A stretch of DNA of 64,000 nucleotides from Escherichia virus TH15. Shown piece after piece: positions 9,786 through 63,664 of this stretch. Below the pieces are notes generated by a model. That model searched no databases. It worked only from the letters and a program-made list of their open reading frames with translations, and was not told where the DNA came from. A program made the translations under genes and the position numbers. The first letter of the stretch is position 1; every line of letters begins with the position of its first letter. Location of the stretch: the sequence record MT446392.1; one strand, written 5' to 3'.

Positions 9786-10118
9786 ATGAACATCAAGACT
9801 TATAACGAGTTTTTAGTCGAATCCGCCATCAATGAGACCAAATCAATTGATGATAGTGAAGGCTCTCTGAAATTTGGTTTATCCAAAAATGCAGATGGTG
9901 TTTTCTTTCAGATTGGTAATGAACGTTTTCAAACGTCCAAATATTCCAAAGCTGCAGTTGAAGCTGTCCTGAAATCTGGTGGCAAGTGGAAAGGCAAAGA
10001 AGGTACTAAAGAAATTGGTATCGCTGTTGACGGCGGTATGGCTTATTTCAAAATTGGTGATGAACAATTCATTATGTCTGCTCGCGGACGTAAAGAACTT
10101 GCAAAACTTTATAAATAA
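9786..10118 (+). CDS. internal-protein-like protein with capsid targeting sequence (MNIKTYNEFLVE)
   Basis: Start placed at Met 12 of ORF 9753..10118 (SD acggag); N-terminus matches the T4 IP capsid-targeting motif M-K-T-Y/F-x-E-F-x-x-E. Confidence 0.6.
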   Translation: MNIKTYNEFLVESAINETKSIDDSEGSLKFGLSKNADGVFFQIGNERFQTSKYSKAAVEAVLKSGGKWKGKEGTKEIGIAVDGGMAYFKIGDEQFIMSARGRKELAKLYK

Positions 10119-10126
10119 GGTTTCTT

Positions 10127-10399
10127 ATGAAAACTTTCAATGAATTTTTCAACGAGTCCCAACTGAATGAAGAAGTAAAAATTAGTAAATCAGTCAAAGC
10201 TATGATTGACAATATCAATCACCTGTATAGCATTGACTTAACTGACCATATAACAATTGGCAACAAACGCAACTTTTTCGCGTTTGACATTTCAGAACTT
10301 GACCAGAACCAAATTAATAACATTGAGCGTTTTGCCAATGATAAGGGTCTCCGCCACGAGACAGCTGGTTATAAAAAATATGCAATTTATCTAAAATAG
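10127..10399 (+). CDS. internal-protein-like protein with capsid targeting sequence (MKTFNEFFNE)
   Basis: 90 aa; CTS-type N-terminus. Confidence 0.6.
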   Translation: MKTFNEFFNESQLNEEVKISKSVKAMIDNINHLYSIDLTDHITIGNKRNFFAFDISELDQNQINNIERFANDKGLRHETAGYKKYAIYLK

Positions 10400-10407
10400 G
10401 ATTTCAA

Positions 10408-10707
10408 ATGCAAACTTTTCATGAATTTTTGGTAGAAAACAATTACCTGGCGGAAGCAAAAACCTGGCCTCTGGGCCTTCAGAAGAAAAACACCTACAAA
10501 TGGGTTGACTTCAAAGGCAAAGGCGACGCTGAAGACTTTGACCAGCTGCGTAAAAATGGTTATACCTTCCTTGACTCTAACTATAATAAAATTACCTCAT
10601 TTGGTCAGAAATCCAGCATCGCATATATTGAAACTGGTAAAAACACCCCTAAGAACATCACTGACGACTTCGCAGCTTATGGCGTGATTCGCGGTTCAAA
10701 AATGTAA
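10408..10707 (+). CDS. internal-protein-like protein with capsid targeting sequence (MQTFHEFLVE)
   Basis: 99 aa; CTS-type N-terminus. Confidence 0.6.
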   Translation: MQTFHEFLVENNYLAEAKTWPLGLQKKNTYKWVDFKGKGDAEDFDQLRKNGYTFLDSNYNKITSFGQKSSIAYIETGKNTPKNITDDFAAYGVIRGSKM

Positions 10708-10742
10708 TGTACATGATGGGATAACTGCAGTATAATTATCCC
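10707..10742 (+). promoter_or_regulatory. early promoter cassette: -35 ATGTAC, -10 TATAAT inside palindrome GGGATA...TATCCC
   Basis: -35-like hexamer, 18-nt spacer, TATAAT; GGGATA(n6)TATAAT-TATCCC palindrome; leader ATCAACTACTGGAG. Confidence 0.6.
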
Positions 10743-10762
10743 ATCAACTACTGGAGCTACTA

Positions 10763-11041
10763 ATGAAAACTTATCAAGAATTTATTAACGAATCAATTAG
10801 TCACCCGGATATGCTGGAAGACCTGAAAGGACATCTGATGGTTAAGGCCAAACCGGTTGATGGTGGCGCATTTGAGTTGTTTCTTGTTAAAGGCGAAAAC
10901 GGTCCTGATAACAAGAAAGTTTCAGCAATGATGTTGACTAAAGGTTACAAAGTCAGTTCTTCCTGGAATGCTCCATTCACTTACGCGGTAAGCCCTCGTG
11001 AACTGAAAAAAGTTAAAGCTGGACAATATACAAAAATTTAG
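10763..11041 (+). CDS. internal-protein-like protein with capsid targeting sequence (MKTYQEFINE)
   Basis: 92 aa; N-terminus matches the T4 IPI/IPII/IPIII targeting peptide. Confidence 0.65.
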   Translation: MKTYQEFINESISHPDMLEDLKGHLMVKAKPVDGGAFELFLVKGENGPDNKKVSAMMLTKGYKVSSSWNAPFTYAVSPRELKKVKAGQYTKI

Positions 11042-11076
11042 TGTACGTGATGGGATAGTTGCAGTATAATTATCCC
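11041..11076 (+). promoter_or_regulatory. early promoter cassette: -35 GTGTAC, -10 TATAAT inside palindrome GGGATA...TATCCC
   Basis: Near-identical copy (about 85 bp) of the cassette at 10707 including the first codons of the downstream gene. Confidence 0.6.
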
Positions 11077-11096
11077 ATCAACTACTGGAGCTACTA

Positions 11097-11351
11097 ATGA
11101 AAACTTATCAAGAATTTATTAACGAAGCCGCAGATGCAAAAGTTGAGTTTGCTTACGTTGGTTCCCCGCGCGGCAGTTTTTCTAATGAAGAATTCCGTCG
11201 TTCACTGGACAATTTCATGCAGTTAAGTGCTGAAGTATCGCATGATGGCCGTTATGACATCGTTACTATTAGCGGTTCTGAAGACCTTATCAAAAAGTGG
11301 TACAAGCAGAAAGATGTTGAGATGCGTTACTATCGTATCCCTAAAAAATAA
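11097..11351 (+). CDS. internal-protein-like protein with capsid targeting sequence (MKTYQEFINE)
   Basis: 84 aa; CTS-type N-terminus. Confidence 0.65.
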   Translation: MKTYQEFINEAADAKVEFAYVGSPRGSFSNEEFRRSLDNFMQLSAEVSHDGRYDIVTISGSEDLIKKWYKQKDVEMRYYRIPKK

Positions 11352-15292: not shown

Positions 15293-15886
15293 ATGAATAC
15301 TTTAAAGAAACTTGTTGAATTCATCCGCTCCAAACTGGGTACTGCAATGGCACAAAACCTGTCTATTGAAGACCAATATACTAAAGCGGCAACAACCCTG
15401 ATTGACAAGATTACTGAGCTCCAGACTGCCCACGTTAAGTCTGTTAATGAAGAAAAACGCATCCGCGAGTTAGCGAATGAAAAAGACCAGCTCGCTGCTT
15501 CAAAAGAGCGTGAAATCCGTAAACTGATTGCTGATGGTGCTGATGTTCAGGTCCATGCTAAACTAGGTCTCCTGTATCGCCACACGGCTAAACAACTTCG
15601 TAAGAAGGCAGATGATTATGTTGAAATGCGTAATGAAATTAAATTGAAAGTTAAAGAGCTGGATGATTCTCGTCAGGAACTAGCTGTTAAACTGGAATAC
15701 ATCCGCGAAACTCGTAAGGTATCTGCCCTGGGTATTGCGACTGCAGATGATGTTGTTGAAATCGCTGCATTGACTAAGATTGATATTGAAGACACTCTGA
15801 TGCGTGTTGAAACCTTCAAAGGCCCACAGGTTGGTGTGGATACCACATCCGCTGACATTGAAGAATACATCAATTCACTTAAGTAA
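15293..15886 (+). CDS. hypothetical coiled-coil protein
   Basis: 197 aa, charged and helical composition. Confidence 0.5.
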
Positions 15887-15893
15887 GATAAAA

Positions 15894-15908
15894 GGGGGCT
15901 TTGCCCCC
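15894..15908 (+). terminator. GC-rich hairpin (weak terminator)
   Basis: GGGGGC-TTT-GCCCCC, no clear T-tract. Confidence 0.3.
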
Positions 15909-15929
15909 TAATTGGGAGAGGAGAATATT

Positions 15930-16484
15930 ATGACTTCATACGATAATCTTATATCAAATGTAGAATGGTTTGGCGGCAGTGGTCTTGCCACTGAAACTAA
16001 TACAGTTCTTTATAGAATCCGTGGTGACCTAGGTTATTCCAATGATTTCTTAAGAAGAACAACTAGTCGGGGCGATACTACCAAATTACCTTTTATTTTT
16101 GCTTTGGCTGAAGACCTTTCTTTCGCAGATGCCTTGGAAATTATTGACGTGAATCTGGGCATTCAACGAGTGGAATTCGCTGGACTACGTTATTCAGTGT
16201 ATGCATTAAACGACCCTAGCGATTATAGACAACTTATTGATGCAGACGATGATTATCATTTAGTGTGTTATTTGATGTTAGAAAATGGTGACCACTTTGG
16301 AATGGTTGACCGCCGTCCAACTTACTCTGATATTAAAAATTATGATAAAGATGAGCTTACTATTTTGGCTGCTGAGTATACATCAGAGAGTCGTAAGCAA
16401 CAACGGAAGCTTAATCGTTTTATTACTGAATGTCGTGAATATGCTAAAGGGGTTCAAAATGCGAACGCTATATCTGCCAAGTAA
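15930..16484 (+). CDS. hypothetical protein, C-terminal FITECR motif
   Basis: Start at ATG 15930 (track ORF begins at TTG 15912); SD gagaggag; C-terminal ...NRFITECREYAKG. Confidence 0.5.
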   Translation: MTSYDNLISNVEWFGGSGLATETNTVLYRIRGDLGYSNDFLRRTTSRGDTTKLPFIFALAEDLSFADALEIIDVNLGIQRVEFAGLRYSVYALNDPSDYRQLIDADDDYHLVCYLMLENGDHFGMVDRRPTYSDIKNYDKDELTILAAEYTSESRKQQRKLNRFITECREYAKGVQNANAISAK

Positions 16485-16818
16485 ACCAGAAAAATTTGTA
16501 TACGCGGACAAGATTGATAAAGACCTTATGCCTCCATTTGGAGCTTTGTCCATGTGCATCGTTGGGGTTATAATGATGGTGCTTTGTGGGGATATGGATA
16601 TCATTAGTGTCGGAGTCGCCTGGACACTAATAATCGCAACTCCTTTTATTACAGTCCTGAGTATGATTTTGATAAATGTGTGGCATCAAAATCATATGAA
16701 TAAAGGATATCGTGGACGAGTTAAAGAGTGGGAACAAAAATGTGTTTCCCTACAAAAAGAGCACAAAATTAAATGTGCAGAAGAATTTATCAAGGAGGTT
16801 CGCAATGGAACGGCCTAG
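16459..16818 (+). CDS. small membrane protein, C-terminal FIKEV motif
   Basis: Start at Met 59 of ORF 16285..16818 (MRTLYLP...), overlapping upstream stop; two hydrophobic segments. Confidence 0.45.
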   Translation: MRTLYLPSKPEKFVYADKIDKDLMPPFGALSMCIVGVIMMVLCGDMDIISVGVAWTLIIATPFITVLSMILINVWHQNHMNKGYRGRVKEWEQKCVSLQKEHKIKCAEEFIKEVRNGTA

Positions 16819-17158
16819 TCTTGCACTACATGTTTATCAATTGGCTGAATATGATATTGGTGCCAATTTATTATTAGGGATTGTTACCGCTATGCTCGGG
16901 GGCTTGGTTGGCCTGGTAATGACCACAGTTATGGCTGCAATCGAGGGAGTCATGCCTATTGAGATGGGCTTCTTTATGATAATTGCTCCGGCTGTTGTAG
17001 CCTATTTTATCCCGGTTGTGTATGATATCTGTCACACAAACACCTTGAATGCTCCCATCCGTAAGAGATACGCTTTGGCAATGGCTGAGTATAATAAGTT
17101 CCTGGACAAAACAAAACGTAATGAACTTGAAACCTTTATTAAGGAATGTAAATCATGA
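16805..17158 (+). CDS. small membrane protein, C-terminal FIKECKS motif
   Basis: Start at Met 32 of ORF 16712..17158 (MERPSLALH...); two hydrophobic segments; stop overlaps next ATG (ATGA). Confidence 0.45.
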   Translation: MERPSLALHVYQLAEYDIGANLLLGIVTAMLGGLVGLVMTTVMAAIEGVMPIEMGFFMIIAPAVVAYFIPVVYDICHTNTLNAPIRKRYALAMAEYNKFLDKTKRNELETFIKECKS

Positions 17159-17445
17159 ATAAAATTGAAATCGCTATCCCTAAGTATTATGATGAGAAAT
17201 CTGCAGAAAAAGCTATCTATTCTCTTCTAAATAAGACTTCTGAAATTGAAACACATTGTGAAGAAATCGCTGATGAATATGGCATTGAATTCAGCACCGG
17301 CGATTACGGCACAGGTCGTACATACCACCCAGTCGGTTATGAATGCTCTGAATGGTTTACCCATCATATTGAAGCCAATGGCGGTCGGGTTGAAAATGGT
17401 GTTGTTACCGTTGGTGCTTGGGTCTCCTCTTCTGAGATGTGTTAA
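17155..17445 (+). CDS. W-SSS-x-C family small protein, member 1 (ends ...GAWVSSSEMC)
   Basis: 96 aa; shares the EEIADxY N-terminal helix and W-V-S-S-S-E-x-C C-terminus with the four downstream ORFs. Confidence 0.55.
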   Translation: MNKIEIAIPKYYDEKSAEKAIYSLLNKTSEIETHCEEIADEYGIEFSTGDYGTGRTYHPVGYECSEWFTHHIEANGGRVENGVVTVGAWVSSSEMC

Positions 17446-17454
17446 GGAAATGGT

Positions 17455-17736
17455 ATGATGAACGATTACAGTAAAAATAAAGAACTGGCCAACGCAGTAA
17501 ACGAAATCCATAAAGCTATTCGGCGCGCCGAGGAAATTGCAGACAAATATGAGACTCATTTTAATATATACCCTGCTCGCGGTATGGGCGGTGACTATTA
17601 TTCTCCTGGCGCCTTGAAAGCTGACCTTGCTCATTGGGAAAACTACGGTGAAGCCCAATACGCCATTGTTAACCAACATGACTACACAACGGACCTTGAA
17701 AAAGGTGGTTGGGTTTCCTCTTCTTCTGAATGTTAA
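17455..17736 (+). CDS. W-SSS-x-C family small protein, member 2 (ends ...GGWVSSSSEC)
   Basis: 93 aa; tandem paralogue; stop followed by TAAGGAA SD of the next gene. Confidence 0.55.
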   Translation: MMNDYSKNKELANAVNEIHKAIRRAEEIADKYETHFNIYPARGMGGDYYSPGALKADLAHWENYGEAQYAIVNQHDYTTDLEKGGWVSSSSEC

Positions 17737-17744
17737 GGAATTAT

Positions 17745-17942
17745 ATGTCCCGTGAATTAGATTGTGCAATCCGTACTGCTGCGGCAGCTATTGAAAACGT
17801 TATCCAGATTTGCAAAGAAGAACGCGAAGAAGCTGATATCTATATTGACGGTCAGCGTAATCTGGAACAACATATTACGCTTTATAATGGTTGTATTACT
17901 ATTAGTGGTACCTCTTGGGTGTCCTCCTCTTACGAATGCTAA
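17745..17942 (+). CDS. W-SSS-x-C family small protein, member 3 (ends ...TSWVSSSYEC)
   Basis: Start at Met 6 of ORF 17730..17942 (SD aaggaa); tandem paralogue. Confidence 0.5.
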   Translation: MSRELDCAIRTAAAAIENVIQICKEEREEADIYIDGQRNLEQHITLYNGCITISGTSWVSSSYEC

Positions 17943-17950
17943 GGAAATAA

Positions 17951-18178
17951 ATGACTACTAAAACTGTTAAAGAAATTGAAGACCAAATCCGTGCACTAAT
18001 CTGTGAAGGTGAACAGCTGGCCGATAAAACTGGTGAATACTTTCATGTATATGCTGACAGTCTTCAACGATATATTCCTGCGGGCTGTCCAGAATATGAA
18101 GAATATGACTGGATTCGCGGTGATTATGGTATCCCAGAAGGTAAAGGTTTCTGGTACACCTCCTCTATGTCTTGCTAA
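17951..18178 (+). CDS. W-SSS-x-C family small protein, member 4 (ends ...FWYTSSMSC)
   Basis: 75 aa; tandem paralogue. Confidence 0.5.
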   Translation: MTTKTVKEIEDQIRALICEGEQLADKTGEYFHVYADSLQRYIPAGCPEYEEYDWIRGDYGIPEGKGFWYTSSMSC

Positions 18179-18187
18179 GGAATAAAA

Positions 18188-18412
18188 ATGTCTGATATTA
18201 ATGAATTAGAAAAAGCAGCTCTTGAACTGGCTGCGCTGTATAAGAAAGTTAAAGATATGGCTTCTGCTCAAGATTTCGGTATTGAGCTCGATGATTATGA
18301 TGGCGAAGTTCGTCTTGAAGACTGGTTGAACAGCTCTTGTTATGGTGAAGAAGCTGGTCGAACCTTCGTTGCTCACCCGGATGGTAAAATCTGGTACCCG
18401 AGCAGCTGCTAA
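18188..18412 (+). CDS. W-SSS-x-C family small protein, member 5 (ends ...KIWYPSSC)
   Basis: 74 aa; tandem paralogue, most divergent. Confidence 0.5.
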   Translation: MSDINELEKAALELAALYKKVKDMASAQDFGIELDDYDGEVRLEDWLNSSCYGEEAGRTFVAHPDGKIWYPSSC

Positions 18413-19782: not shown

Positions 19783-20469
19783 ATGAACGGTCCTAAAACT
19801 TTTAATAGTCAAGCTCGTGCAGTTGGTGGTTTTGCACATAACGTACAAAATGACCAAATCAAAAATGAACCAATGTTCTTTAACTGTGATTTGAGTTTTG
19901 CTTGGGATAATGGTGGTCCAATCACTCGTAGCTTTATTGCCAATCTCCCAATTGATTGGACTAATCAACATGTTGTGTTTGATTCACGTGCGCATATGTT
20001 AATGCCAGGTTGGTATCCAGCTATCCCTGGCTATCATCATGATGATGTTCCTCGTCCACCCATTCCAACAGGACAACATTTTATTACTGCAGGACAACCT
20101 GATTATGACAATCCTCGCTATTTGTCTGAACACATTCTTGGTCTTGTTAACGCTGATGTGTGCCCTACCCATTTTGCTACAGGCGAAGCCACCTTTAGTG
20201 AAATCCCAGAAGGTGAACTGATTTATCGCCAATGGCATAAAGAAGTTCTGGCTAAAATTGAATCAGGTGAATTAGAGCAATGGGAAGCTCCTGACCGCAC
20301 ACTCCTGCAGTTTAATTGTCATACCTGGCATACTGGTTCCCAGACAGTGCGCAATGGCTGGCGTTGGTTTGGTCGTGTATCTCGTAACACTGACCGTGTT
20401 AAAAATATTACCAATGAAATCCGCGTTAATGCCCAAGTATATCTGGAATTCCCTATGGAGGGATGGTAA
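19783..20469 (+). CDS. hypothetical protein
   Basis: 228-aa ORF with SD gaggaaaa. Confidence 0.5.
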   Translation: MNGPKTFNSQARAVGGFAHNVQNDQIKNEPMFFNCDLSFAWDNGGPITRSFIANLPIDWTNQHVVFDSRAHMLMPGWYPAIPGYHHDDVPRPPIPTGQHFITAGQPDYDNPRYLSEHILGLVNADVCPTHFATGEATFSEIPEGELIYRQWHKEVLAKIESGELEQWEAPDRTLLQFNCHTWHTGSQTVRNGWRWFGRVSRNTDRVKNITNEIRVNAQVYLEFPMEGW

Positions 20470-21044
20470 TGATGTATGAACCCGGTTGCATGGGTGATAT
20501 GAAAGGTCCACAAGGATGTGCAGGTATTCCAGTTCCAAGAGATGAATTTATGATTACCAAAAGATATTGGGCAAACCTTGATGATGGTGATGAAGGAATC
20601 AAGGTGGAAAACGTTGATTGGTCGCACTGTAACCGTCATATGAAAGAGCTTTTGATTGAGGAATATAAAATGAAGCACATCGTTAAAGGTTGGCAACCAG
20701 AACCACATAAAGAACAAACACCTGACCCATTGATTTGTTATAGTGAAAAATATGGTTTTCGTACATGGAGCGATGAATATGACAAGTTGGTGTGCTCCAG
20801 GTTCTATGTTTGGATGGGAATACTATTTTTTCCAATCCTGTGGTTTTTCCTGACAACGAAAAATGACTTGCCAATTTGCGTATTCGGGGCAGCAGTATCT
20901 GCGGCCATTGCAGGTATTATCGCATCATTTTTGTGGACCTCTGTTATTGAAGTACCTTTTCGTATTTCTAAAGTTAAAAAGGTATATGACAATATCACAA
21001 AGAAAAATACATTAAACTCTTTTATTGAGGAATGTCGTAAATGA
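20463..21044 (+). CDS. membrane protein, C-terminal FIEECRK motif
   Basis: 193 aa; two C-terminal hydrophobic segments; tail matches the FIxEC family at 15930-17158; stop overlaps next ATG. Confidence 0.5.
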   Translation: MVMMYEPGCMGDMKGPQGCAGIPVPRDEFMITKRYWANLDDGDEGIKVENVDWSHCNRHMKELLIEEYKMKHIVKGWQPEPHKEQTPDPLICYSEKYGFRTWSDEYDKLVCSRFYVWMGILFFPILWFFLTTKNDLPICVFGAAVSAAIAGIIASFLWTSVIEVPFRISKVKKVYDNITKKNTLNSFIEECRK

Positions 21045-21739: not shown

Positions 21740-22495
21740 ATGAATTATCTAAAAATATATGAATCTTTAATAGTATCTGCTATTAAAAGACCTCTTACAC
21801 AAGGATACACCGAAAAACATCATATTTTACCGAAATCGATGGGTGGTAATGATTCTATTGATAATTTAGTTACCCTTACCGCCCGTGAACATTTTATTGC
21901 ACACTTATTATTGGCAAGAATTTTTAAGAATCGCGAAATGTGGTCCGCTGCATATATGATGGCTTCAACAAGTCTAACTAACTCGGATAGACATAGATGC
22001 TCGTCACATTTATATGAATTATTGCGTAAACAAGCGTCGGTATATAATTCAGGTGAAAATTCTCCAAATTGGGGAATAAAACGTTCTGAAGAAACACGAT
22101 TAAAAATGTCAATTTCAAAAATGGGTATCAGGAATCCAATGTACGGTATTCCACAATGTTTGGAACACTCTCATAAAATTAGCCTTGGTGTTACCGAAGC
22201 TTTTAAAAATCCAGAAATGAAAGAACGCCACCGTCAAAGTGTTTCTGGAGAGAATAATGGGTTTTATGGAAAAAAACATTCCGAAAAAAGTTTGGAAAAA
22301 CAGCGGAATACAAAACGGAAAGGATTTCCTTGGGACAATTATTTGGAATTGTACCCAATTTGGGTTTCATTAAATTGCCCCAAGCATCCAACATTCACAA
22401 ATGAACTTGTTAAATTGGGATACCCCAAAAAGAAGCTTGTTCGAATAGTGGAAGAGTTTAAAAATGAATATATTCGAAATGCTACGCATAGATGA
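21740..22495 (+). CDS. HNH homing endonuclease
   Basis: 251 aa; N-terminal [11 protein letters not shown]...[20 protein letters not shown] is the typical HNH core; NUMOD-like basic repeats at the C-terminus; overlaps start of e by 32 nt. Confidence 0.7.
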
Positions 22496-22952
22496 AGGTT
22501 GTAAATTAGATTTGTATAAAGATACCGAGGGGTACTATACCATTGGTATCGGGCAACTGATAACTAAGAACCCATCGAAAGATGTTGCTCGTGCCGAGCT
22601 CGACAAGCTCATGGGTCGCGTCTGTAATGGTCGCATAACCCAGCACGAAGCTGAAACATTGTTTAACCGTTCGGTCGAAAAAGCTAAAGCCGGAATATTG
22701 AGGCATCCTGTCTTAAAACCTGTTTATGATGTACTGGATGAAGTTCGTCGTTGTGCACTCATTAATATGGTATTCCAGATGGGTGTTGCCGGGGTTGCTG
22801 GTTTTCCTAAGGGACTGCGATTGCTCAAGGCCAAATCGTGGGAAGCTGCTGCTAAGGAACTGGCGGACTCAAGATGGTATAAAGTCCAGACTCCAAACCG
22901 GGCCAAACGAGTTATTGAAACTTTCCGTACTGGAACTTTTGACGCTTATTAG
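22464..22952 (+). CDS. e: endolysin (T4 lysozyme homologue, gene e)
   Basis: 162 aa; [12 protein letters not shown]...[11 protein letters not shown]...[13 protein letters not shown]...[13 protein letters not shown] closely parallels T4 lysozyme. Confidence 0.9.
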
Positions 22953-23472: not shown

Positions 23473-23736
23473 ATGAAAACTTATCAAGAATTTATTACTG
23501 AATCTGCCAAAGCTCCTGCTGGTTCCTTTAAAGTCCGTGCCTTCGCTGGTGATGCTGAAGACTTTGGCTCACTGAAGCGCAACGGTTATTCTTTCTTTGG
23601 TGGTGATGGTAAAGAAATTGTTACCTATGCAAAACGTCGCGAAATCGCATTCGTGGTTGCTGGTAAGAAAGTATCCCCAGAAGATATTGAAGTTGACTTT
23701 GAGACCTTTGGTATTGTTTCTGGCGGTAAAGCTTAA
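23473..23736 (+). CDS. internal-protein-like protein with capsid targeting sequence (MKTYQEFITE)
   Basis: Start at Met 14 of ORF 23434..23736; CTS-type N-terminus; position matches T4 ipII/ipIII near denV. Confidence 0.6.
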   Translation: MKTYQEFITESAKAPAGSFKVRAFAGDAEDFGSLKRNGYSFFGGDGKEIVTYAKRREIAFVVAGKKVSPEDIEVDFETFGIVSGGKA

Positions 23737-23738
23737 CT

Positions 23739-23767
23739 GTTTACTTTATGATGGGATAGTGTATAAT
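23739..23767 (+). promoter_or_regulatory. early promoter cassette whose -10 overlaps the start codon of the next gene
   Basis: -35 GTTTAC, 17-nt spacer, GGGATA, TATAAT; the ATG at 23766 is formed by the last two bases of TATAAT plus G. Confidence 0.5.
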
Positions 23768-24065
23768 GTTAACTTATCAAGAATTTATCACAGAAGCCAA
23801 AGTTCCTAAAGCATTTCAAATTGGGGTTCAAGGCAATTTAGACCAACAATATGTTGATGCTATTGTAGCAAGCCTCGGTAAACAAGGGGTGCAAGTGGAT
23901 TTGGTTGATTTTACCAAAGGCAATACTTTTAATATTGTTACATCTAAAGGTTCTTTAGCTAAAGTTAAAAAGGCCTTTGGCGTAGCACAAGCATACGAAA
24001 TCGACCATTCTGAATTCGAAAATAAAGGTCGCCAGAACACAATTAAAGGCTCTGGTTCTTTTTAA
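23766..24065 (+). CDS. internal-protein-like protein with capsid targeting sequence (MLTYQEFITE); leader deleted
   Basis: 99 aa; CTS N-terminus with K2L change; no SD, ATG inside the upstream -10. Confidence 0.5.
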   Translation: MLTYQEFITEAKVPKAFQIGVQGNLDQQYVDAIVASLGKQGVQVDLVDFTKGNTFNIVTSKGSLAKVKKAFGVAQAYEIDHSEFENKGRQNTIKGSGSF

Positions 24066-61028: not shown

Positions 61029-61346
61029 ATGAAAACTATTGATTGCAAAGCGGAATACAAAGTTTATTATCATGGCTCAAGCTCTAATGCTGGAATCCAA
61101 AATATGCTTTGCCCTCCTGATGCAACTGGTGTTCTGTCAGAAGTTGGGCGCAAGAAAAATTTAGGGCGTGTGTTTTTTACTGAAGATATTGGTTTGGCAC
61201 GTATCTATGCAGGAAGAGCAGCTCGTTCAGTGGGAGGAGAACCCCGTCTTTATCGTGTGATTGCACCTGTTGATGTGGTTTGTTTAAATGATACTAAAGG
61301 CGCAACAGTTTATCACGCAGACTGGGCGTTTTGTGAGGAAATCTAA
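61029..61346 (+). CDS. small protein with ADP-ribosyltransferase-fold-like H-G-S motif (tentative)
   Basis: 105 aa; KVYYHGSSSNAGIQNML...GRVFFTEDIGLARIYA resembles the H-G-S ... aromatic ... acidic layout of PARP/Tpt1-type folds. Confidence 0.3.
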   Translation: MKTIDCKAEYKVYYHGSSSNAGIQNMLCPPDATGVLSEVGRKKNLGRVFFTEDIGLARIYAGRAARSVGGEPRLYRVIAPVDVVCLNDTKGATVYHADWAFCEEI

Positions 61347-61559
61347 ATGTATAAATTAGAGAACGTAGTGTTTATTGGTTGGTTTGAAAATGGTAATATG
61401 TTTACCAAAGAAACCGCGCTGGATGTTAGTGACCAAAAAATGATTGAATGGGTTACGGTGCAGTATGCAGAGGTGAATAATGCGCTGGTGAAAGCCTTTG
61501 TTAATGACAATAAAGTTTTTGAATGTGATTATCGTATCCACTTATCTGAGGAAATCTAA
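61347..61559 (+). CDS. hypothetical small protein, paralogue of 61560..61901
   Basis: 70 aa; shares the ...NNALVKAFVNDNKVFECD block with the next ORF; junction GAGGAAATCTAAATG on both sides. Confidence 0.45.
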   Translation: MYKLENVVFIGWFENGNMFTKETALDVSDQKMIEWVTVQYAEVNNALVKAFVNDNKVFECDYRIHLSEEI

Positions 61560-61901
61560 ATGGCTTTTAATCCAGAAGACCGCGTAAAAGTAACAATCAA
61601 AGTGAGTGCTGTTGGCGTTCCATCTTTTGAGCGCTCAAGTATGTTCCATCCCGCAGGTATTCACTGGTATGTTCAGAAGACTGCTGATAACTATAATGCG
61701 CTTGTTGAAGCTTTTGTTGATGACAAGCTAATTCATAAAGTAGACATGCGTAAGGGTACCGCATTGCGTAATCTGATTTTGACCGTTGAAGCGCAACTGT
61801 TAAATGAAGAAATCTGCCTTACTGATATTGAAGCAGCTCTTCATATTGCACGTGCTGAATATTACAACTTGACCGGTTTTTCAGTTGAAGGCGAAAAATA
61901 A
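61560..61901 (+). CDS. hypothetical protein, paralogue of 61347..61559
   Basis: 113 aa; shares the ...YNALVEAFVDDKLIHKVD block. Confidence 0.45.
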   Translation: MAFNPEDRVKVTIKVSAVGVPSFERSSMFHPAGIHWYVQKTADNYNALVEAFVDDKLIHKVDMRKGTALRNLILTVEAQLLNEEICLTDIEAALHIARAEYYNLTGFSVEGEK

Positions 61902-62254: not shown

Positions 62255-62695
62255 ATGATTAACAGAAATTTAGTTATCAAAAAACTTCGTTGTAAAAATC
62301 AAAATGCACAGGCATACAGGATGTTTTGGAGCGACGACCCCATCCAATACCTGGGTTATTTTCTTGTTGATAGTGATAATAGAATTACGTTTGCTCATAA
62401 ACTTCTTAACAAAGAATTAAACCATTGGCAAGAACTTATTGCGGTCAAGTCTAAATTATTTTCGCGCAATACAATGCACCAATTGGTTTATTTTTTCGCT
62501 GATGGTATTCCTGACAAGGTTGAATTTGATGGGTTTGAATTTAAAGACATCAACCCTGATAATGAATTGAATGACAGTATTGTTAATATGGGTATCCCGG
62601 GTAAGTACATCAAAAACAGTCTTTTGAAACTTCTGGAAACTCCTGTATATTCAGTTGACGACCAAATTTTTAATGCCTTCATGAAGCGAGATTAA
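62255..62695 (+). CDS. hypothetical protein, C-terminal DDQIFNAFMKRD tail
   Basis: Start at Met 46 of ORF 62120..62695, directly after the upstream stop; C-terminal tail shared with the next gene. Confidence 0.45.
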   Translation: MINRNLVIKKLRCKNQNAQAYRMFWSDDPIQYLGYFLVDSDNRITFAHKLLNKELNHWQELIAVKSKLFSRNTMHQLVYFFADGIPDKVEFDGFEFKDINPDNELNDSIVNMGIPGKYIKNSLLKLLETPVYSVDDQIFNAFMKRD

Positions 62696-62696
62696 T

Positions 62697-63056
62697 ATGA
62701 GTTATTATAATTTTCTGAATTTTGAACTGGTGAGCAATAATGATGGTAATGCCCGTTATGAATTTCGTGAGCCTCGGTTTAATCAGGCGATTGGTTATAT
62801 TATCGTTAAAGATGATGTTATCATAAAGGCTCGCTCATTTATGGTAATGAGTGGACCTTATGAAGATACTCGTGGCTATCCATTTGATAAAAAGAATGTA
62901 CGCGATTGTGCAGCATGGATAACCGGAAACCCTGAAATTGGGGTCATGATATCTACTGAAGCAAATGACATTCTGGAAGGGGCTTGGGTTAAAGCTCAAG
63001 AACTGCCTACTGATATTGATGACCAGATTTTTAATGCCTTCATGAAGCGAGGTTAA
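62697..63056 (+). CDS. hypothetical protein, C-terminal DDQIFNAFMKRG tail
   Basis: 119 aa; the last 12 codons plus stop/start junction are near-identical to those of the preceding gene. Confidence 0.45.
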   Translation: MSYYNFLNFELVSNNDGNARYEFREPRFNQAIGYIIVKDDVIIKARSFMVMSGPYEDTRGYPFDKKNVRDCAAWITGNPEIGVMISTEANDILEGAWVKAQELPTDIDDQIFNAFMKRG

Positions 63057-63057
63057 T

Positions 63058-63279
63058 ATGTTTGTTTTGACCCAATTCTCTAAAGCAATATATAGTTACT
63101 CTTGTCAGTGGGAAGTCTTTATTGATACTCCTTCGCCTAAGTATGGTGTTTTTGGACGAGTAACTACACAAGCTTACGTTGCGCGACCGACTAAACGTCA
63201 GATTCGTAAGCTTAAAAAGGCACATCGTCAATTGATTAAAAGAAGGGAACAATATGAGTGCAATGTGTACGGGCTCTAA
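63058..63279 (+). CDS. hypothetical basic small protein
   Basis: 73-aa ORF, translationally coupled. Confidence 0.4.
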   Translation: MFVLTQFSKAIYSYSCQWEVFIDTPSPKYGVFGRVTTQAYVARPTKRQIRKLKKAHRQLIKRREQYECNVYGL

Positions 63280-63463: not shown

Positions 63464-63631
63464 TATGAAAACATTCAAAGATTTTATAAACGAAGATATG
63501 GTTGCAGGTGATGCAGGTGGAAACCCAACTAATATCGCAACAGGTACCACTTCCGGGGCAGTTGTCAATAAAGGCCCTGAACAAATCCCATCAAAAAAGC
63601 GTAAGAATAAAGACGATAAACCTACAGTATA
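63464..63631 (+). CDS. small protein with capsid-targeting-type N-terminus (MKTFKDFINE; 55 aa, below the ORF-track cutoff)
   Basis: Hand-translated MKTFKDFINEDMVAGDAGGNPTNIATGTTSGAVVNKGPEQIPSKKRKNKDDKPTV; SD aaaggggg; preceded by a late-promoter motif. Confidence 0.45.
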
Positions 63632-63664
63632 ATGGTCCTTCGGGGCCATTGAAATGAGGAAACT

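Follow-up and report, generated by a model that had tools for sequence, protein, structure and literature searches.

A conserved C-terminal tail on the e.5, e.4, e.3 and e.2 proteins of T4-like phages, probably a protein motif in the first place, whose codons also carry ribosome-binding sites and recombination breakpoints

The subject of this analysis is a set of four small genes in a 64,000-nucleotide stretch of DNA from Escherichia virus TH15 (sequence record MT446392.1; the whole stretch is hereafter the window), which we call genes A, B and C and the e.2-like gene, and whose products end in a common short tail. Judging from their sequences, they are this phage's versions of the T4 genes e.5, e.4, e.3 and e.2, respectively. 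A first-pass annotation, made from the letters of the window, had noticed the tail and offered three readings of it: a translational-coupling junction, a cassette boundary used in recombination, or a functional C-terminal motif. Our verdict is that the protein motif is primary, that the junction with the next gene is secondary and generic, and that the cassette boundary holds as a consequence. The comparisons directly display the conservation pattern of the tail, its independence from coupling, the ribosome-binding-site signature overlaid on it and the breakpoints that fall at it.

The tail itself had been recognized correctly, as the variants FITEC, FIKEV, FIKEC and FIEEC stand near the ends of the four open reading frames (in the order given above). 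The pattern FI.E[CV] occurs four times in the plus-strand frames of the 64 kb, always at most 16 residues from a stop codon, and the sole extra match is in an antisense frame that is not coding; for FI.EC, composition alone predicts about 0.06 occurrences. The looser pattern F[IV].[ED][CV] is present in the last 22 residues of 5 of the 127 predicted proteins, where 0.15 would be expected, and in 5000 shuffles a count of five was never attained. The tail is a real and non-random feature, and it is no genome-wide habit, since a scan of the complete genome of TH40, a close relative, found [FW][IVL]xxCR near the C terminus in e.5 and e.2 only. The description of its carriers as a membrane-protein family fits gene B, gene C and the e.2-like gene, each with two transmembrane segments, but not gene A, in which a scan for hydrophobic segments found none. 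The end assigned to gene A has also to be corrected, because its reading frame extends 10 codons further, past the ATG of gene B, to end in AKGVQNANAISAK.

Comparisons with GenBank phage records (single-protein scans of viral contigs had given 12 loci) extend the tail across genera. In T4, O157tp3 (Mosigvirus) and QL01 (Dhakavirus) these tails recur on proteins whose identity to their window counterparts is only about 20-47%: FVKECREYVK (T4), FIMECREYVK and FITECREYAK in e.5; FVKESRCKSQS (T4) and FVKEIRCKSLNS in e.4; FVIDCRKIK (T4), FIKECRK and FIKECKS in e.3; and FITECRNLR and FIEECRK in e.2, with FITECRKLK in the T4 e.2 remnant. When the two-span modules of e.3, e.4 and e.2 from four genera are aligned, the Phe of the tail is the sole invariant column and its Glu is at least 90% conserved; in alignments of e.5 proteins, which are about 20% identical, the longest invariant run is ECREY.K. 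In a set of 26 non-redundant tails, numbered from the Phe (position 0, Phe in every one), a hydrophobic residue stands at -3 in 25, Ile or Val at +1 in all 26, Cys at +4 in 22 and Arg or Lys at +5 in all 26, with nine different residues at +2. Position +3 is Glu or Asp in 25 of 26 in the genera infecting E. coli and is free elsewhere (H, Y, M, G, S, K, R). We regard it as fairly probable that this consensus, h-x-x-F-[IV]-x-[E/x]-C-[RK], is mainly a protein motif, an estimate that extends to the docking role proposed below. Consistent with this, the Cys, Arg, Tyr and Ile codons of the tail vary synonymously with the residues fixed. Among 11 Gaprivervirus and Dhakavirus genomes the e.3 tail varies at 2 of 11 residues versus 69 of 106 in the body, and the corresponding figures for e.2 are 3 of 11 versus 123 of 177.

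More distant members tell the same story. A HMMER scan of 1.84 billion representatives with the profile of the module retrieved 14 clusters only, and the tail is kept by every untruncated member shown, the distant P0077, P0079 and P0080 among them, the most distant ones ending in FIKECKS, FIREVRNAKTR, FIDDCKNWR and FVRDCRKTK. These distant proteins come from a metagenomic T4-like contig in which four to five tail-bearing genes stand in a row, followed by nudE and lysozyme. The Klebsiella phages Marfa and Roth76, Serratia phage LC53, Enterobacter phage EnA02 and Aeromonas phage avDM5 encode at the e.5 position a soluble protein ending in F-[IV]-x-x-C-R, and full-length similarity joins the e.5-position proteins across genera. 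In each of the phages of these four hosts e.6 is followed by between one and six genes with the tail, and most of these phages add several two-span proteins whose final residues are FIKEVRRK, WIRSCRK, FIKECR, FIKGCRK, FINDCRKARK, FIAECRGKNEIQS, FISRCRIKR or similar. The protein of the JS98_gp124/SP18gp135 type, ending in KLFLEYCRSDVQL, is possibly a further member of the tail family, given like genes in Marfa, Roth76 and EnA02.

Two further sets of variants were encountered in these comparisons. In Mosigvirus a fifth two-span member of 101 amino acids with the tail NLENFIKECRGK precedes the 228-amino-acid gene (locus L003, 8777-9082; locus L021, 7508-7813), and the window has no copy of it. 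Some Tequatrovirus e.3 variants of 76-97 amino acids (P0050, P0051, P0054, P0056 and P0059, e.g. in Escherichia phage LH2) end in NWQRKKGLQNTIKRI and are tail-less; they appear to be frameshifted, natural tail-less alleles.

The first-pass annotation had further proposed that the tail codons contain the Shine-Dalgarno sequence of the next gene, whose ATG overlaps the stop. This is so in three genes, where AAGGAGG (16792-16798), AAGGAA (17141-17146) and GAGGAA (21027-21032) each lie 6-8 nucleotides upstream of an ATG, but not in gene A, whose FITEC codons (tttattactgaatgt, 16419-16433) lack such a sequence and lie 26 nucleotides upstream of the ATG of gene B (16459), the site AAAGGGG being nine codons downstream of the motif. 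Of the four junctions, only those at 17155-17158 and 21041-21044 are of the ATGA type, and the remaining ones overlap by 26 and 14 nucleotides. As far as can be read from sequence, all four have the geometry of coupled junctions, with a start in or next to the stop and a ribosome-binding site in the upstream reading frame. What survives of the coupling proposal is that three of the four genes do hold a site in their tail codons, where codon choice shows it to be selected; yet this is the generic state of the genome and leaves the motif unexplained. In the window 75 of 126 adjacent plus-strand gene pairs (60%) either overlap (45) or are separated by 0-12 nucleotides (30), so embedded ribosome-binding sites are not special to the tail genes. 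Among residues from site-bearing codons across the window Glu is enriched 3.6-fold, and Gly, Arg and Lys are also enriched.

What favors the functional C-terminal motif as the best supported of the three readings is that the tail is kept in homologues that have no coupled downstream gene, a pattern that had been named beforehand as pointing to a role at the protein level. The avDM5 e.5 homologue keeps FVDYCRR, ends in FVDYCRRTASKK and is followed by 67 nucleotides with promoter-like sequence, and in Roth76, EnA02 and SP18/JS98 small soluble tail-bearing genes have gaps of 29-64 nucleotides after them. In e.5 the motif lies at least 26 nucleotides upstream of the next start and undergoes synonymous swaps (tgt/tgc, cgt/cgc/aga, tat/tac) with its residues fixed. 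Moreover, the codons that supply the site differ by lineage, namely K-E (AAGGAA), E-E (GAGGAA), K-E-V (AAGGAGG), C-R-K (GCAGGAAA), R-G (CGAGGA), W-R (TGGAGG) or a stretch across the stop (TAGGAAAA), while the motif stays put. Codon choice nonetheless indicates that the ribosome-binding site is selected on top of the motif. All 17 tails of the form C-R-[KN]-[IL]-[KR] directly before the stop, in which gCAGGAAa serves as the site, spell the Arg at +5 as AGG; about 55 other tails never do so and have cgt, cgc, cga or aga instead. Tails whose x-E codons are already AAGGAA or GAGGAA are two residues shorter. We see the embedded site as a property of the packed genome and not of what the motif is for: the next gene usually starts at or before the stop, the tail codons must accommodate its ribosome-binding site, and selection fits the site in by way of codon choice, the residue left free at +2 and the length of the tail.

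The suggestion that the tail is a cassette boundary is borne out by the relatives of the window: exact deletions running from one tail junction to another have removed e.4 in some and e.2 in others, and the breakpoints of allele swaps lie at the tail. The loci of JS98, IME281 and IME341 and further single-piece records are without e.4; in them e.5 ends in AKEVQNGTA followed by ATGgaacggcct, a fusion between the window's left junction aaaggggttcaaaATG and its right counterpart aaggaggttcgcaATGgaacgg. The loss runs exactly from ATG to ATG (346 nucleotides); in VR26, 13 of 16 positions agree between the two junctions. The loss of e.2, seen in at least 25 Tequatrovirus records (PST, PP01, IME340 and others), comprises 485 nucleotides and fuses the e.3 tail to the e.2 tail within gaTTGCAGGAAAttaaaATGa, about 22 nucleotides being common at the breakpoint. 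These two genes, e.2 and e.3, are the most divergent of the neighborhood, with 43-47% identity versus 72-100% for their neighbors. In sliding comparisons of the window with VR5 and QL01 the membrane part of e.2 remains at about 40-57% identity, which rises to 97-100% at 21015-21020 (VR5) or at about 21023 (QL01), that is, at the tail; the body of e.3 is at 40-65% and 97-100% is attained at 17118-17148. The tail can be viewed as an island of near-identical DNA within genes that are otherwise about 50% identical, and crossovers at it would yield both precise single-gene losses and swaps of divergent alleles. On our interpretation, recombination follows from the presence of a conserved island in divergent DNA and does not explain why that island is there.

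Two observations stand beside these events. A 106-amino-acid protein of Escherichia phage vB_EcoM-UFV05 (P0066; PF26873 and PF26896) joins the N terminus of e.4 to the second membrane segment and tail of e.2, and by its sequence is a deletion hybrid of paralogues with a breakpoint inside the membrane region, not at the tail. T4_ev240, considered as a laboratory-derived e.2 deletion, is only about 95-96% identical to T4 here and hence uninformative on deletion in real time.

With regard to function, an AlphaFold2 model of the e.3-like protein (predicted local distance difference test score, pLDDT, 81) has helices at residues 18-47, 52-67 and 69-116, with the second transmembrane helix unbroken up to residue 116 of 117. 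The conserved positions of the tail follow the spacing i, i+3, i+4, i+7 and thus occupy one helix face, at the tip of this long helix. A cytoplasmic position for the helix is suggested by the stretch of basic residues that follows the second transmembrane segment. We propose that the tail ends a cytoplasmic alpha-helix and marks early proteins encoded between e.6 and the lysozyme gene of T4-like phages, a set that would include several two-span inner-membrane proteins (e.4, e.3, e.2 and, in other genera, additional copies) and at least one soluble protein (e.5). Its conserved face may dock these fast-diverging proteins on a common partner, or on each other, at the inner face of the membrane. 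A docking helix shared by variable proteins is our best guess at the role of the tail, based on sequence conservation and the model. A more specific version, which we put forward only tentatively, is that the F-I-x-x-C-R tail is a dedicated C-terminal address tag, analogous to the N-terminal capsid-targeting peptide of internal proteins, recruiting fast-evolving membrane and soluble early proteins to one phage or host partner; its codons would double as cassette homology and as the region from which translation of the following gene is initiated. If this were true, the e.5-e.2 cluster would be a self-contained system for the exchange of specificity modules under a host arms race.

Several points weigh against this account. 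The docking role would rest on the conservation pattern and a single monomer model. The model of the e.5-like protein was poor (pLDDT 48) and was dropped from the fold search, so the helical state of the e.5 tail is not established. The e.4 lineage is without the Cys at +4 (V, S or I instead), and the small soluble tail-bearing proteins have no detectable similarity beyond the tail, so that chance or convergence could account for some of them. In the e.3 tail of the 11 Gaprivervirus and Dhakavirus genomes synonymous variation is seen at 0 of 9 fixed codons versus 21 of 33 in the body (Fisher p = 0.0013), which is DNA conservation in excess of the need of the protein and indicates that part of the signal is a nucleic-acid constraint or recent recombination. 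The members are individually dispensable in nature, with e.4, e.2 and e.5 each absent from some phages, which argues against an obligate complex of all of them; a case of such dispensability is the Mosigvirus vB_EcoM_WFL6982 (locus L020), which is without e.6, e.5 and the stretch from gp255 to the 78-amino-acid gene and retains e.4 and e.3. Functional clues were likewise not forthcoming from NCBIfam, which had no match for the tail proteins, from sequence searches of the PDB with the e.5 profile and with e.2, which gave no match, or from a fold search with the e.3-like model, which gave no significant fold match and, in the viral library, relatives only.

Even so, the alternatives fare less well. 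It seems to us very improbable that the tail exists for translation, its DNA being conserved as the initiation region of the next gene and its residues a by-product. Such an origin would account for the good site 6-8 nucleotides before an ATG in three of the four window tails, for the frozen synonymous sites of the e.3 tail and for AGG Arg codons exactly where they form the site, and it has a parallel at 61335 and 61548 of the window, where unrelated proteins share EEI at their ends only via the initiation region of a duplicated downstream gene. However, a site needs five or six contiguous purines, whereas it is F, I/V, C and R that are conserved, with helical spacing; the would-be site codons at +2 and +3 are the most variable; the synonymously variable e.5 motif is far from the next start; the site shifts among codons with the motif fixed; and the persistence of the tail in homologues lacking a coupled gene already largely refutes this explanation. 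We also consider it unlikely that the tail is a recombination linker selected for small-gene cassettes, a coding counterpart of the promoter/stem-loop cassettes (PeSLs) of T4-type phages, with the protein motif secondary. The two independent precise deletions between tail junctions and the allele-swap breakpoints at tails agree with this idea, as do the large e.3-e.2 block of non-T4 genera, which starts right after the e.3 tail, the exact 16-nucleotide AAATTTGTTAAGGAAT common to the otherwise dissimilar e.5 and e.4 of T4, and the documented PeSL-mediated shuffling (PMC2839356). Yet selection for evolvability is weaker than selection on protein, and any conserved island in divergent DNA gathers crossovers unselected; the repeats are short (about 16-22 nucleotides) and imperfect, and the residues are kept across genera through synonymous change, so DNA homology is not maintained over long distances.

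A membrane-binding or regulatory tag, which could be an amphipathic helix lying on the inner leaflet (compare the tails of MinD and FtsA) or a signal for proteolysis or modification, we judge to be rather improbable. The amphipathic pattern with basic residues at +5 and +6 is in keeping with it, and so is the presence of the tail on a soluble protein encoded beside membrane proteins, but the near-invariant Cys-Arg pair is unexpected for plain lipid binding. Also in its favor, the core E-F-I-x-E resembles the N-terminal MKT[YF]xEF[IL]xE peptides on internal-protein genes of the same window; against it, the motif is C-terminal and not N-terminal, and the Glu at +3 is not maintained outside the genera of E. 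coli phages, so that an I-x-E protease site is not general. We keep a protein motif with a probable docking role as the preferred reading of the tail.

The family assignments on which the comparison builds are as follows. The window is DNA of a T4-like phage, with its top DNA matches (92-95% identity) in Gaprivervirus and Dhakavirus phages including VR26, TH40 and SP18; e.6, e.4, e.3 and e.2 are the names given in annotated relatives to the counterparts of the tail genes and their neighbor. Gene A belongs to the e.5 family (PF26876/phrog_8788), soluble proteins of about 180-270 amino acids encoded after e.6 with full-length similarity. It adjoins e.6 as in T4, and a profile from the e.5 sequences of the window, QL01, O157tp3 and T4 pulls out PF26876 proteins; in direct BLAST against T4 e.5 the tail alone aligns, and the Marfa homologue bridges both over 143-184 residues. 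Gene B is a member of the e.4 family (PF26873/phrog_2604), two-span proteins of about 120-130 amino acids with the N terminus M(S)KP..LYLPSKP encoded between e.5 and e.3: its near-identical relatives P0047, P0048 and P0053 are annotated PF26873, it aligns with the e.4 of T4 and O157tp3, and it is present or absent as a unit among relatives, Dhakavirus loci being without e.4. Gene C has the two spans, the length (about 117-124 amino acids) and the long C-terminal helix of the e.3 family (phrog_2330); tblastn links it to Tequatrovirus e.3 at 23-25% identity over 99% of the query, and profile search recovers the PP01 'e.3' (P0022). The e.2-like gene has the N-terminal W..LDDGDEG..VDW..C domain and two transmembrane segments of the e.2/Y06M family (PF26896 Phage_T4_Y06M/phrog_2203); its relatives P0060-P0076 are annotated PF26896, its N-terminal domain aligns with that of T4 e.2, and its alleles are highly divergent (43-75% identity to relatives, flanking genes 72-100%). 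A local copy of Pfam gave no significant match for the four proteins, though PF26873, PF26876 and PF26896 are listed for relatives. TolQ/ExbB-like hairpins found in the PDB for the e.3-like model were non-significant (E >0.5, TM-score about 0.3) and were not used, and the deposited 'MotA-ExbB domain' annotation probably stems from the same weak match.

Features of the window that are discussed in the text, with positions, strand and remarks
Feature	Position	Strand	Remarks
e.6-like gene	15293-15886		followed by hairpin
G+C-rich hairpin GGGGGC-TTT-GCCCCC	15892..15909	+	between e.6-like gene and gene A; scan gave stem on complementary strand
Gene A, e.5-like, 184 amino acids, soluble	15930..16484	+	26-nucleotide overlap with gene B; phrog_8788, E 1.7e-113
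Gene A tail, L-N-R-F-I-T-E-C-R-E-Y-A-K	16410..16448	+	no ribosome-binding site within
AAAGGGG (16446-16452) and ATG of gene B	16446..16461	+	left copy of imperfect junction repeat flanking e.4 cassette
Gene B, e.4-like, 119 amino acids, two transmembrane segments (26-44, 56-74)	16459..16818	+	phrog_2604, E 5.6e-45
Gene B tail, A-E-E-F-I-K-E-V-R	16777..16803	+	Val instead of Cys
AAGGAGG and ATG of gene C	16792..16807	+	right copy of junction repeat
Gene C, e.3-like, 117 amino acids, two transmembrane segments and long C-terminal helix	16805..17158	+	phrog_2330, E 1.5e-44
Gene C tail, L-E-T-F-I-K-E-C-K	17126..17152	+	DNA-identity peak, mosaic breakpoint
AAGGAA (Lys-Glu codons) and ATG of next gene	17141..17157	+	ATGA stop overlap
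Five small tandem paralogues, DUF7275 gene, 228-amino-acid gene			between gene C and e.2-like gene
e.2-like gene, 191 amino acids (193 from ATG 20463), N-terminal domain and two transmembrane segments	20469..21044	+	phrog_2203, E 1.3e-69
e.2-like tail, L-N-S-F-I-E-E-C-R	21012..21038	+	sharp recombination breakpoint
GAGGAA (Glu-Glu codons) and ATG of 78-amino-acid gene	21027..21043	+	ATGA overlap
78-amino-acid gene, nudE, HNH endonuclease gene, lysozyme e			downstream of e.2-like gene, in this order
T4 lysozyme gene e	22464-22952
Exact junction GAGGAAATCTAAATG, first copy	61335..61349	+
Exact junction GAGGAAATCTAAATG, second copy	61548..61562	+
DDQIFNAFMKRD tail and next start, first copy	62657..62699	+	tail ends at stop codon
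DDQIFNAFMKRG tail and next start, second copy	63018..63060	+	tail ends at stop codon

The hairpin downstream of the e.6-like gene has similar counterparts after e.6 in T4, O157tp3 and QL01. It probably terminates the upstream transcription unit, and on this basis the tightly packed block would begin at gene A. At the other end of the locus, an HNH-type homing endonuclease gene (21740-22495) lies between nudE and lysozyme and overlaps the start of the latter by 32 nucleotides; SP18, QL01 and T4 have no gene at this position, so it looks like a mobile insertion.

The same logic had been claimed for two further sets of junctions in the window; the repeats are indeed there (GAGGAAATCTAAATG at 61335/61548 and DDQIFNAFMKR at 62657/63018), but their histories differ. 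The 15-nucleotide GAGGAAATCTAAATG occurs exactly twice, the genes downstream of it being paralogous (42% over 31 residues) and those upstream unrelated, both ending in EEI before the stop. This common ending would be explained by duplication of a gene along with its own initiation region and has the look of pure hitch-hiking, unlike the F-I-x-x-C-R tail. The two adjacent proteins that end in DDQIFNAFMKR[DG] (62255-63056; 146 and 119 amino acids) are similar in their last 27 residues only (52% identity), and the DNA of their junctions matches at 37 of 40 nucleotides.

In addition, the five tandem small genes downstream of gene C (17155-18412; 65-96 amino acids, phrog_899) end in W-[VY]-[ST]-S-S-x-x-C or W-Y-P-S-S-C, with the Cys last, each followed by 8-9 nucleotides with an AGGAA ribosome-binding site. 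Endings of this type are found also in Marfa, LC53, EnA02, QL01 and O157tp3 (WVSSSEMC, WHPSSC, WLSSSDMC), and by sequence these genes are a second family defined by a C-terminal tail.

Literature searches on e.4, e.5 and the e-segB open reading frames returned nothing relevant, and neither a shared tail nor a function is described in the searchable sources. The genes themselves are known, uncharacterized T4 reading frames, and what appears to be new is the shared tail, its breadth across genera and the separation of the three constraints. Given that e.2-e.5 are among the many T4 early genes without an assigned function, a tail common to membrane and soluble members from phages of E. coli to those of Aeromonas offers a concrete handle on them. 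The locus is also a natural case of three constraints, those of a protein motif, a ribosome-binding site and recombination homology, in the same 25-30 nucleotides, in which codon evidence tells them apart. The findings also bear on the annotation of the T4 reference. Its e.2 (locus L002, NC_000866, 67491-67960; 102 amino acids) is a frame-broken remnant: the 161-nucleotide 'gap' before nudE encodes, in shifted frames, the second membrane segment and the ending NLNNFITECRKLK, and other Tequatroviruses have an intact gene of 162 amino acids. The annotated start of T4 nudE (MQEIKM) lies inside the e.2 tail codons, and the second ATG, which overlaps the stop, looks the likelier start.

Compared with known systems, the window closely resembles the e.5, e.4, e.3 and e.2 genes of the e-segB region of T4, with which it shares the order after e.6 and before nudE and e, the sizes, the two-span topology and the tails. 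It differs in that identity outside the tail is about 20-25%, in having about 3.3 kb of other genes between e.3 and e.2, and in a 4-codon insert in the e.5-like gene that creates a new ribosome-binding site and start. The ATGA stop/start coupling of compact phage operons likewise has a site in the last codons of the upstream gene and a start that overlaps or precedes the stop, but while this accounts for purine-rich codons, it explains neither F, I/V, C and R nor the persistence of the tail without a coupled gene. The prohead protease cuts the N-terminal capsid-targeting peptide MKTYQEFIxE of T4 internal proteins after its Glu, and MKT[YF]xEF[IL]xE starts that we take to be of this type are carried by seven or eight small genes of the window (9786-11351, 23473-24065, 63465-63632). 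Such peptides are, like the tail, short conserved terminal segments with an E-F-I-x-E core on very variable small proteins; unlike it, they are N-terminal, removed at an I/L-x-E protease site and carried by packaged soluble proteins, whereas the tail is C-terminal, belongs mostly to membrane proteins and shows neither the position nor the site. Finally, the PeSLs of T4-type phages are intergenic elements of about 100 bp with a strong sigma-70 early promoter and a terminator stem-loop, and recombination between them excises or inserts single small genes with their expression signals intact (Arbiol et al. 2010, PMC2839356). In common with these, the tails are short boundary repeats in variable regions at which single small genes are lost or gained by recombination; they differ from PeSLs in that their repeats are of 16-22 nucleotides, lie within coding sequence and carry a ribosome-binding site and start, and a scan found no promoter-plus-hairpin pair at the four tail junctions, which have no intergenic DNA (overlaps of 26, 14, 4 and 4 nucleotides). 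The tails extend the idea of boundary-driven modular shuffling in T4-type phages from intergenic promoter/terminator cassettes to coding tails.

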